DNA from: a bacterium
Lineage (GTDB): Bacteria; Patescibacteriota; Minisyncoccia; UBA6257; GWB1-50-10
Direction: 5' to 3'
NCBI GenBank assembly: GCA_021812365.1
Contig: JAKANQ010000003.1
Span: forward strand, 1-56,088
DNA: 56,088 bases
Shown here: positions 36,144 through 38,664 of the stretch, one piece after another
Layout of the letters: each line of letters begins with the position of its first letter
Position numbering within the stretch: the first letter of the stretch is position 1
Position numbers and translations under genes: made by a program
The notes under the pieces: model-generated
Databases searched by the model: none
What the model was told of the DNA's origin: nothing
Seen by the model: the letters and a program-made list of their open reading frames with translations, nothing else

Positions 36144-36170
36144 ATAAAACTCCCGCAAAATGCGGGGATT

Positions 36171-36332
36171 CTCTTGTGCCCCCACAGGAAGAGTACTTCC
36201 GTGGTGGCACTGCGTTCGGAAATACGAATATGCTCTCTTGTGCCCCCTCAAGCGGAGTACCGCGTGAGGGCACTGCGTTCGGAAATAAAAAAACACCTAC
36301 TGGCGTTTTTTAATTTCCTCTCTTGTGCCCCC
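36171..36332 (-). repeat. Trailer repeats of tRNA-Lys: two 64-nt-period hairpin units, each ending in a copy of the tRNA 3' end
   Basis: CTCTTGTGCCCC at 36171, 36235 and 36320; GGCACTGCGTTCGGAAATA twice; stems differ but keep pairing. Confidence 0.8.
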
Positions 36333-36397
36333 ACTAGGATTTGAACCTAGAACCAACTGCTTAAGAGGCAGCTGCTCTACCGTTGAGCTATAGGGGC
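36326..36397 (-). tRNA. tRNA-Lys (CTT)
   Basis: GCCCCTA/TGGGGGC acceptor, loop CTCTTAA, TTCAAAT T-loop; no encoded CCA. Confidence 0.95.
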
Positions 36398-36458
36398 CCT
36401 TTGGATTTTTACTATATCCAATTCCACTTCGAAAATCAAACAATTCTGCTCTACCTAT

Positions 36459-36639
36459 TGTGCCCCCGGAGGGATTCTCCCGCGCCTCTCACCTCGCCGC
36501 CGCTCGGTTCGGGCTGGGCACCAACTCGCGGCGCATTCTACTGAATGCGCATCGCTCCGTTGTTCGACTCCCTCACACACGCAAATAAATTTGCGTGTTC
36601 GGGCGCACGCGCTGCGCTTATGTGCCCCCGGAGGGATTC
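36459..36639 (-). repeat. 19-bp duplication of the tRNA-Arg 3' end flanking a 143-bp structured insert
   Basis: TGTGCCCCCGGAGGGATTC at 36459-36477 and 36621-36639. Confidence 0.8.
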
Positions 36640-36694
36640 GAACCCCCAATAACAGGTTCGAAGCCTGTCGTGATATCCATTTCACCACAGGGGC
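36623..36694 (-). tRNA. tRNA-Arg (TCG)
   Basis: GCCCCTG/CGGGGGC acceptor, ACAGG-CTTCGAA-CCTGT, TTCGAAT T-loop; no encoded CCA. Confidence 0.95.
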
Positions 36695-37161: not shown

Positions 37162-38664
37162 ATGAAAACCAAGATTCCCGCTGAAATAGAGGATATTGCG
37201 CGCATTCTGTCCGATGCGGGTTTTGAGGCATATCTTGTGGGCGGTTCCTTGCGGGACATGCTTTTGGGAGTTTCGCCCAAGGATTGGGATATTGCGACGA
37301 ATGCCACACCCGAAGAGACACAGAAACTTTTTGCCACCTATGGCGGACGCACGTTGGAAGACCCCGCTACGGTGTACGAGAACTCATTTGGAACGGTGGG
37401 AATAAAGACCGAATCGAAAGATGAATCGTTGAAGATAGTTGAGGTGACCACGTTCCGCGTGGAGGGCAAGTATACCGATAAGAGGCATCCTGATGAAGTT
37501 CAATTCGCAAAGACGGTCGAGGAGGACTTGAGCCGCAGGGATTTCACCATAAATGCGATTGCCTTCAATCTTGCGAATCACTCGCTTTCCAAATCCCACC
37601 TTGTTGACCCATTCAATGGGATGGATGATCTGCAGAAGAAATCATTGCGTACGGTGGGCGACCCCAACAAGCGATTCGAGGAAGACGCGCTTCGTCTTAT
37701 GCGCGCCGTCCGATTTGCGGCACAGCTTGGTTTTGAGATAGAGCACCAGACCATGAATGCAGTGAAAGAAAACGCCGGACTTTTGGATGTGATCGCGAAG
37801 GAAAGGATTCGCGATGAATTTTCAAAACTTATCATGACTCCGCGCGCCGCGATGGGGATAGTGATGATGGAGGACATGGGACTTTTGAAATTTGTGATTC
37901 CGGAACTCCGCGAGGGTATCGCGTGCGGGCAGAACAAGCATCACATCTATACGGTATTCGACCATAACGTGCGCGCGTTGAATTACACCGCGGAAAAGGA
38001 GTATTCATTCGTGGTTCGCATGGCCTCGCTTCTGCATGATGTGGGAAAGCCGCGCACCAAGGGGGGCGATGGTCCCGATTCGACGTTCTACAACCACGAG
38101 GTGGTAGGCGCTCGGATGGCCGTGAAGATATTGGACAGGTTGAGATTCTCAAAGGAGCATATCGAGAAGATATCGCATCTTGTGCGGTGGCATCTCTTTT
38201 ACTACAACGTGGGCGAGGTGACGGAAGCGGGCGTGCGGCGTTTCTTAAGCCGTGTAGGCTTGGAAAATGTCGATGACCTTTTGAAGGTGCGTGAGGCGGA
38301 TAGAATCGGTTCGGGCGTGCCGAAAGCATTTCCGTACAAGCTGCGCCACTTACTCTTCATGATAGACAAAGTGAAGAACGACCCCATTAGTCCGAAAATG
38401 GTGAAGTTGAACGGTGACGAGTTGATGAAGGAGCTTCAATTAACGCCGAGCAGAAAGGTGGGATATATTCTCTCCATCCTTTTGGAGGATGTGATTCAGG
38501 ATCCTGCGAAGAATGAGAAGGAATATCTCATCGCGCGCGCGAAAGAACTGAATGTGTTTGATGATGTGGAGCTGTCTGCAATGGCTGATAAGGCAAAGGA
38601 GCATGCCGATGAGTTTGAGGAGGGCATTGAGAGGGAGATGAAGAAGAAGCATAAGGTGGCATAA
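37162..38664 (+). CDS. cca: CCA-adding tRNA nucleotidyltransferase with HD domain
   Basis: YLVGGSLRD, DWDIAT, DLSRRDFTINA, RFEEDALRLMRAVRF, ERIRDE, LLHDVGKP, FYNHE. Confidence 0.88.
   Translation: MKTKIPAEIEDIARILSDAGFEAYLVGGSLRDMLLGVSPKDWDIATNATPEETQKLFATYGGRTLEDPATVYENSFGTVGIKTESKDESLKIVEVTTFRVEGKYTDKRHPDEVQFAKTVEEDLSRRDFTINAIAFNLANHSLSKSHLVDPFNGMDDLQKKSLRTVGDPNKRFEEDALRLMRAVRFAAQLGFEIEHQTMNAVKENAGLLDVIAKERIRDEFSKLIMTPRAAMGIVMMEDMGLLKFVIPELREGIACGQNKHHIYTVFDHNVRALNYTAEKEYSFVVRMASLLHDVGKPRTKGGDGPDSTFYNHEVVGARMAVKILDRLRFSKEHIEKISHLVRWHLFYYNVGEVTEAGVRRFLSRVGLENVDDLLKVREADRIGSGVPKAFPYKLRHLLFMIDKVKNDPISPKMVKLNGDELMKELQLTPSRKVGYILSILLEDVIQDPAKNEKEYLIARAKELNVFDDVELSAMADKAKEHADEFEEGIEREMKKKHKVA

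Follow-up and report, generated by a model that had tools for sequence, protein, structure and literature searches.

The DNA analysed here, referred to as the window, is a stretch of 56,088 nucleotides that forms one contig (C22) of a 626-kb bacterial genome in 25 contigs, which has 42 transfer RNA (tRNA) genes and one transfer-messenger RNA (tmRNA) gene; its relatives found by sequence are metagenome-assembled genomes of the Patescibacteria/Paceibacterota. The subject of this report is a small element directly behind the tRNA-Arg(TCG) gene, which lies on the minus strand at 36694..36623 (ARAGORN; Rfam tRNA, 66.6 bits) and has no encoded CCA, its discriminator A being followed by CA. There are exactly two occurrences of the 19-mer TGTGCCCCCGGAGGGATTC in the window (36459-36477 and 36621-36639), and none is expected by chance (100 shuffles). 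On the strand of the tRNA its sequence is GAATCCCTCCGGGGGCACA, which corresponds to the final 17 nt of the tRNA (positions 57-73, beginning at the T-loop centre and running to the 3' end) plus CA. The first copy (X1, 36621..36639) belongs to the tRNA gene itself, and the second (X2, 36459..36477) lies downstream of the gene at a spacing of 162 nt, with an insert of 143 nt between them. An earlier, sequence-only reading of this DNA had described a direct repeat of the tRNA-Arg 3' end around an insert, and this description holds. An independent assembly from another sample (L192) matches the locus in 4143/4143 nt, and a third contig (L191) has an identical element. Since the locus is the same in independent assemblies, the sequence is real and an assembly artefact is excluded; the repeat is also far below the k of 141 implied by the contig names (k141_...).

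All parts of the element are described on the minus strand, in the direction of the tRNA. The tRNA is separated from the element by a 12-nt spacer, TAAGCGCAGCGC (36609..36620), whose sequence lacks a U-tract terminator and which forms a small hairpin with the first bases of the left arm. The left arm is an inverted copy of the tRNA 3' end that is split in two. Its first part (36600..36608) is antisense to the acceptor 3' strand in 8/9 nt (GTGCGCCCG against the perfect GTGCCCCCG), an extension absent from the sequence-only reading, and it pairs with X2 when the element is folded alone. Its second part is the antisense T-arm GAGGGAGTCGAAC (36562..36574), the complement of tRNA positions 65-53 with one mismatch; on the plus strand it reads GTTCGACTCCCTC, which differs at one position from the tRNA T-arm GTTCGAATCCCTC, just as had been noticed earlier. 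At the mismatch, the arm has the base that a copy of tRNA-Arg(GCG) would be expected to have. The two parts are split by H1, a 9-bp hairpin (36577..36598) supported by covariation. According to sequence and fold, the 84-nt core (36478-36561) has two domains, both also seen in the alignment. Domain A (36522..36561) contains the helices CAAC/GUUG and GCG/CGC, an 8-bp hairpin (36531-36550) and a CGGAGCG / GCGAG internal loop, and domain B (36479..36518), which is further marked by a conserved 21-mer, consists of an irregular hairpin; it has two tandem G.A motifs as well as the conserved GGUGCCCAGCCCGA ... GAGAGGCGCGGG. The exact repeat X2 serves as the right arm. The three hairpins seen in the sequence-only reading are all present: two of them (36531-36550 and 36577-36598) belong to the conserved helices of the family described below, and the third (about 36604-36618) is the small local hairpin of the spacer.

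The element belongs to a family with a strongly conserved fold, which we call family 1. Folded alone, it adopts exactly the Y-shaped family consensus at -78.4 kcal/mol (z -4.5). In an alignment of 87 distinct sequences from many Patescibacteria lineages, which was fitted to the structure model, 93% of the cells are paired, double changes occur at 37/42 pairs, and compensatory changes occur at 9/9 pairs of H1. The covariation score is 0.50, compared with 0.13 in shuffled alignments and 0.05-0.08 with slid partners, and the original MAFFT alignment of 6 sequences already has 27/42 pairs compensated. The junction bases CGGAGC, GCGAGG, GGUGCCCAGCCCGA and AGAGGCG are conserved in sequence. When the insert and 11 other loci were searched with the covariance models of Rfam 15, no match other than to the tRNAs was obtained at E values up to 1.

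The element is also not unique to this locus: there are 6 copies in the source genome (G000) and hundreds in relatives. In the source genome, at least 12 of the 42 tRNAs are followed, 117-188 nt downstream, by an exact duplicate of their 3' end, a recurrence that the sequence-only reading had missed. Six of these loci carry family 1 (Arg-TCG, Arg-GCG, Phe, Leu-CAA, Gly-TCC and Asp) and six carry a second family, family 2 (Ser-TGA, Ala-TGC, Pro-GGG, His, Leu-GAG and Trp). All 12 elements lie immediately 3' of a tRNA in the orientation of that tRNA, and their cores resemble nothing else in the genome. Among 96 genomes of the taxonomic family, family 1 is present in 48 (19/43 genera, 0-23 copies each) and family 2 in 64 (0-20 copies each). 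The core 21-mer was found in 117 stretches from species-representative genomes of other species, nearly all Patescibacteria. Among 118 family-1 matches, a same-strand tRNA lies upstream in 98, within 57 nt in 91, and at least 35 tRNA species are used; some apparently tRNA-less matches sit after other elements in arrays, or after tRNA-Phe genes with a group I-like intron. In two such genes, tRNA-Phe(GAA) at L016 (G093) and L036 (G005), the anticodon loop is split by an insert of ~230 nt resembling a group I intron, ARAGORN fails to call the tRNA, and a family-1 element comes next. The tRNAs of the source genome that have no element also have no antisense copy, except tRNA-Cys(GCA) (C4:3703-4295, L214), behind which lie a terminator, an antisense T-arm and the initial 6-7 nt of a family-2 core. 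Altogether, the Patescibacteria contain at least three, and probably five, families of such protein-less, highly structured cassettes of ~90-180 nt. They apparently make up a large and undescribed group behind up to half of the tRNA genes; a full-text literature search gave no description of these elements, nor do they appear in recent preprints that deal with tRNA mimics and with intergenic clustering.

These results bear directly on what the insert had been taken for. The tRNA genes are classic landing sites of phages and genomic islands, and a direct repeat of the tRNA 3' end that starts in the T-loop is the classic signature of such an event, so the repeat could be the relic attL/attR pair of a large tRNA-targeting phage or island whose body was deleted; the source genome does contain two serine recombinase genes. 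However, twelve copies in two conserved families with fixed size and fold exist in this one genome and hundreds in relatives, their cores are unlike the rest of the genome and were found in no viral contig, and there are element-rich genomes without a serine recombinase. The core, moreover, is a strongly conserved, covarying structure, and the earlier suggestion of a relic does not agree with it. Family-wide conservation effectively refutes a relic, which we regard as scarcely credible. A phage origin was likewise rejected, as the core 21-mer is missing from viral contigs.

The arms of the elements are copied from whichever tRNA lies next to them. In 69/88 elements the 3' end of the local tRNA is duplicated exactly over at least 12 nt, compared with 0/88 when a different tRNA is used as a control. 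An exact antisense copy of at least 9 nt is present in 69/88, compared with 11/88 in the control with mispaired tRNAs, so that the antisense T-arm noticed at this locus is conserved as a design. The direct copy begins at position 56/57, the centre of the palindromic TTCGAA, in 45/61 cases and ends at 74-76 in 36/61; the repeat is mostly 18-21 nt long, and 9/61 run further by 16 to 62 nt. A CCA is copied where the gene encodes it, and otherwise the CA of the gene is copied, as in the source genome, where most tRNA genes have CA next instead of an encoded CCA. The copy is therefore derived from DNA and not from mature tRNA, and copying primed by mature tRNA was ruled out for this reason. The antisense arm spans the entire T-loop up to the complement of G53. 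At differences between the two direct copies, it is complementary to the tRNA's own copy 46 times and to X2 twice. The left arm is not a sense copy of the tRNA 5' strands, because it complements the G.U positions of the 3' strand and places the acceptor complement beside the T-stem complement. The whole unit can be written as the tRNA segment from 56/57 to 74-76, a short trailer that often contains a terminator hairpin, the inverted 3' end split by H1, and the Y-shaped core; each locus consists of the 5' part of a tRNA followed by 1.1 to >3 such units.

A comparison of related genomes shows that these elements are gained, lost and exchanged. Among eight congeners, the tRNA-Arg(TCG) gene is empty in two (G009 and G010), carries family 1 with differing cores in three (G000, G004 and G008) and family 2 in two (G005 and G006), and is followed by a third, shorter type in G007. 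In G004 the T-loop of the tRNA is TTCAAAT instead of TTCGAAT, and both arms of the element carry the same change. In G005 an intact family-2 element lies beside tRNA-Arg and a decayed family-1 element, orthologous to that of G004, lies distally; the most decayed units are distal in other arrays as well (for example, G043). This order, intact proximal and decayed distal, fits entry at the tRNA's own T-loop. Cores group by genome, not by tRNA identity. For example, the core at Arg-TCG in the source genome is most similar to that at Arg-GCG of the same genome (0.86), and those at Phe and Gly-TCC are similar at 0.95. The orthologous Arg-TCG elements of G004 and G008 are outside the three nearest to it, with similarities of 0.66 (G008) or less. 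Since the antisense T-loop at our locus keeps the tRNA-Arg(GCG) base, one exchange boundary lies inside the T-loop complement. The sequence-only reading had taken the duplicated tRNA end as an attL/attR-type signature of an integrative element. The repeat does behave as a junction repeat, with orthologous sites empty or differently filled; mobilisation by an integrase in trans is unproven, and none co-occurs with the elements. The three outcomes named in that reading as refuting it (a unique insert, lack of an empty allele and an unconserved anti-T-arm match) do not refute it, given the many copies, the empty congener sites and the conserved antisense design.

The next tRNA gene gave a further case of exchange. 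Past X2, a 61-nt spacer with a promoter-like site (TTGATT-17-TATAGT, 36411..36439, minus strand), listed here for context only, leads to tRNA-Lys(CTT) at 36397..36326 (ARAGORN), and the tRNA-Lys region with its tail (36170..36397, minus strand) contains two repeated mini-units that follow the element's plan and had escaped the sequence-only reading. Each mini-unit consists of an anti-acceptor segment, a GTACTC-loop hairpin and a copy of the acceptor 3' strand, with a period of 64 nt (36170-36332); there are 2 in the window and 3 in the co-occurring strain L191. In another co-occurring strain (L193) with otherwise identical flanks, a family-2 core follows tRNA-Lys, and the break lies exactly after ...GGATTTGAAC, at the T-loop. 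This core is apparently inverted relative to tRNA-Lys, and the contig ends within it.

Tandem copy numbers are non-integer with variable 3' ends (1.1, 1.3-1.45, 2.0 without a terminal repeat, and >3), which points to added slippage, unequal crossing-over or rolling-circle-like copying. Such variation, together with the strain-dependent number of mini-units at tRNA-Lys, would be expected if the elements arose by replication template switching at tRNA 3' palindromes (the T-arm, TTCGAA and the terminator hairpin), which would yield direct-inverted-direct copies, combined with gene conversion of the cores, without any mobility machinery or function. In agreement with this, at the Phe, Arg-GCG and Leu-CAA loci a single long imperfect palindrome, with the terminator loop as its centre, takes in the tRNA end, the terminator hairpin and the left arm; core likeness is highest within a genome, and no enzyme was found. 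However, template switching leaves the source of the conserved cores and of H1, as well as the exact placement at 56/57, unexplained, and it does not explain how the core 21-mer was retained in more than 100 species or why unrelated core families share one design. In addition, the arm is split by H1 and is thus no plain copy of a template. We therefore consider template switching alone an improbable origin.

We favour a different explanation, to which we assign a probability of roughly 55%: the insert and its repeat are a family-1 copy of a non-autonomous, protein-less cassette that recombines into the junction between the tRNA T-loop and the 3' flank. The architecture and the population behaviour of the elements are well supported, and the mechanism below is what we infer from them. 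The cassette would recombine within the tRNA's own segment from the T-loop to the 3' end, with the crossover at or beside the palindromic TTCGAA centre. It would provide a new tRNA 3' end and trailer, and the original 3' end would be displaced downstream, which would make the 19-nt repeat an attL/attR-type junction repeat. The most likely working principle, judged by analogy, is recombination of a duplex target with a hairpin site folded from a single strand, followed by resolution of the junction through replication, the enzyme presumably being supplied by the host or in trans. Folded-hairpin recombination would account for the direct repeat, the inverted arm, the fixed orientation, the arrays of unrelated cassettes with the newest unit proximal and the lack of an element-encoded enzyme. 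Because the cassette is bordered by tRNA homology, on the left by the whole tRNA and on the right by X2, it may also spread by DNA uptake and ordinary recombination between genomes that share the tRNA. More tentatively, and with clear doubt on our part, the cassettes may constitute a new class of mobile element, namely enzyme-less hairpin cassettes on the universal tRNA T-loop that integrate as folded single strands or by homology only, restore the tRNA 3' end and bring arms fitted to each tRNA, with the core as the active part, either a site bound by a host recombinase or a catalytic or guide RNA steering recombination towards tRNA genes.

Several observations weigh against cassette recombination. 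First, it does not explain how the arms come to match a new tRNA without first breaking that tRNA, and neither the interruption of the inverted copy by H1 nor the conservation of the core is accounted for by the mechanism. Second, core swapping between elements or gene conversion could mimic core mobility. Third, one array (L093) ends after a complete core and its terminal repeat is missing. Fourth, near-identical strains yielded no empty allele of the locus itself, and metagenome contigs did not contain the empty junction that is predicted, in which ...GGGGGTTC, GAATCCCTCCGGGGGCACA and ATAGGTAGAG would follow each other; the empty alleles are those of G009 and G010 at tRNA-Arg(TCG). A search for junctions cannot detect a 162-nt circle, as the 1.12-copy genomic form already holds the unit-circle junction. 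Fifth, in having unpaired bases that are conserved and G.A motifs in tandem, the core looks like a functional RNA more than a bare recombination site; folding of the sense strand is favoured by 10 kcal/mol over that of the antisense strand (-68.8 kcal/mol), and G:U pairs outnumber A:C by 68 to 33, about twofold. Sixth, 25/91 family-1 copies, and effectively this locus too, abut the tRNA and must be co-transcribed with it. Finally, no enzyme was identified, and the one site-specific recombinase that is nearly universal in these genomes is present with or without elements.

This recombinase is Xer-like, a tyrosine recombinase of ~300 aa that was found in 92/96 genomes, usually once per genome and generally not adjacent to arrays. 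At C18:536-1194 of the source genome its gene (C18:682-1194) is convergent to tRNA-Leu(TAG). A family-1 or family-2 element lies within ~150 nt of xer in three genomes (G006, C1:30122-30903; G034, C3:105829-106518; G027, C17:219-1026), which is perhaps mere synteny. The 143-nt insert itself contains no gene, no protein gene recurs beside the elements, and their distribution is followed by no transposase, integrase or reverse transcriptase. TnpB (PF07282) was detected in 5/96 genomes and IS110 (PF01548) in 1/96, the source genome not being among them; reverse transcriptase was present in 44/96 and absent from G000, G004-G006, G008, G026, G034 and G045; and serine recombinase was present in 38/96 and absent from the element-rich G005, G006, G026, G027, G034, G040 and G093. 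Partners of the omega-RNA, bridge RNA, retroelement and serine-integrase types were rejected because the enzymes are missing from several element-rich genomes. An HNH endonuclease (158 aa) at tRNA-Cys was also rejected as the mobiliser, since tRNA-Cys, the HNH gene and tRNA-Leu(TAA) are syntenic in 11 related genomes, in which the HNH reading frame always ends at the 5' end of tRNA-Leu(TAA), and are unlinked to the elements. A crude scan of the source genome gave no clear dif-like site, and the core itself was not compared with the dif consensus.

The RNA-like features of the element support the main alternative explanation, in which it acts chiefly as RNA, produced together with the tRNA as a structured 3'-trailer or a tRNA-like RNA, and its spread as DNA is secondary. 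In variants of this explanation, the element could be excised by RNase P and RNase Z, whose sites are predicted at the left arm and behind X2, or pairing of the antisense arm with the 3' half of the tRNA could gate maturation, as the sequence-only reading had proposed. In addition to the strand preference of the fold, the strong covariation and the conserved single-stranded bases, the orientation is always that of the tRNA, the antisense T-arm follows the tRNA's own copy far more often than X2, and the left arm, H1, the T-stem-like pairing and the right arm share their strand topology with the acceptor stem, inserted arm and T-stem of a tRNA. At our locus, no terminator precedes the element, which sits between two co-oriented tRNAs, the second with its own promoter-like site; from these sequence features, this copy is almost certainly transcribed as a trailer. 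The predicted minimum free energy of the precursor is -114.6 kcal/mol when the tRNA 3' strand pairs with the antisense arm, compared with -106.9 kcal/mol for the cloverleaf plus the folded element, and tRNA positions 60-71 pair downstream with a predicted probability of 0.66, these energies leaving aside co-transcriptional folding, tertiary contacts and processing. Sequestration of the precursor is thus thermodynamically allowed in the model. As a general role, however, it is argued against by the terminator-like hairpin and T-run that lie between tRNA and element in 39/91 family-1 copies. Two congeners are also element-free at tRNA-Arg(TCG) and others have unrelated cores there, so no single essential RNA function can be tied to this tRNA, and the copy number of 0 to 23 per genome and the apparently inverted family-2 core in L193 likewise speak against an RNA role. 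We judge a primary role as RNA to be rather unlikely, and we prefer the recombining cassette.

Other features near the elements are recorded here for completeness. A gene for a CCA-adding enzyme (PolyA_pol and HD domains) lies at 37162-38664 of the window, ~470 nt from tRNA-Arg, and such a gene is found directly after the tRNA-Arg element in four congeners. At C9:49000-49320 of the source genome, two partial copies of tRNA-Gln(TTG) border this gene: 86 nt upstream lies one of positions 1-21, and 48 nt downstream one of positions 20-72, with a 2-nt overlap between them. They resemble the junctions of another integration system, one whose crossover would be in the D-arm. The same genome has five occurrences of a 20-nt palindrome, CCTGCCTGCCGGTAGGCAGG (C3:5495-5581, C5:2398-2417, C13:94211-94230 and C15:189-208), every one of them inside a tRNA fragment or truncated element or where such a piece is broken off. 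Its sites include the region upstream of tRNA-Ser(CGA), where a 68-nt tandem repeat contains the tRNA 5' end, a pseudo-tRNA-Gln, and the region past the tRNA-His element. The 16-mer AAGTGAGCGAAGGCGA follows tRNA-end copies at two places (the 3' copy of tRNA-Gln(CTG) at C5:2472-2487 and the 5' copy of tRNA-Thr(CGT) at C5:22225-22240) and hints at a further repeat associated with tRNA ends.

Across a whole bacterial radiation, these cassettes of ~150 nt without any coding content have retained their fold, and in some genomes they occupy between a quarter and half of all tRNA genes. Movement as folded single strands, or by tRNA homology alone, would make them a minimal form of site-specific mobile DNA and possibly a compact integration tool. 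If they are indeed a new mobile class, up to half of the tRNA genes in many Patescibacteria would be colonised by an unnoticed self-spreading structure. If their role is as RNA instead, very small genomes would contain a widespread, unannotated layer of tRNA-linked structured RNA. For genome annotation, the tRNA-end copies in the cassettes can be mistaken for prophage att sites or tRNA pseudogenes.

Compared with known systems, the cassettes share part of their features with several and all of them with none. Like integrative elements in tRNA genes (the T-loop class of tyrosine integrases and cis-mobilizable elements, CIME), they have a 3'-end repeat that starts in the T-loop, they leave the tRNA intact, orthologous sites can be empty, and newer units are proximal. 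In contrast to these, the insert at our locus has 143 nt and no gene, there is an inverted copy of the tRNA end and a structured core, at least 35 tRNA species are used, and no integrase is present. In the recombination of integron attC with attI sites, and of CTXphi with XerCD, a folded single-strand hairpin recombines with a duplex and leaves the order site, cargo, anti-site, structured loop and site. The cassettes have the same integrated order, a structured loop of ~60-100 nt in a hairpin of ~130-150 nt and tandem arrays of unrelated cassettes, and they encode no enzyme either. Their inner ends, ...ATCGAAC and GTTCGAT..., are each one position off the attC boxes R'' (RYYYAAC) and R' (GTTRRRY). 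They differ in having the T-loop as target in place of attI or dif, a tRNA 3' end plus trailer as their sole cargo, and a conserved core of several helices instead of a variable spacer; no IntI with attI was found next to the arrays, the one tyrosine recombinase per genome being the Xer-like protein of ~300 aa, in which the IntI-specific insertion was not looked at. MITEs (miniature transposable elements with inverted repeats), Correia/NEMIS, REP/BIME, RUP and BOX elements are also small, non-coding and multi-copy, with inverted ends, stable hairpins and a patchy distribution among strains. However, the inverted ends of the cassettes are copies of the local tRNA and not shared transposase-binding ends, they lie strictly behind tRNAs, their junction repeat of 18-21 nt is set by tRNA positions, and no parent insertion sequence is known. 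The omega-RNA of TnpB/IscB resembles them as a structured scaffold of ~130 nt followed by ~19 nt identical to the flanking target. The bridge RNA of IS110 and the tigRNA of TIGR-Tas in Parcubacteria (bioRxiv 10.64898/2026.07.30.739390) resemble them in having segments complementary to both strands of one target, although the cassettes lack the 36-nt box C/D units of tigRNA, which is a conceptual parallel only. Unlike guide RNAs in general, the two putative guides of a cassette complement each other, there is no Rfam match, and TnpB and IS110 are absent from the source genome. The element departs in a defining feature from tRNA integrative elements, from MITEs and from attC/CTXphi sites alike.

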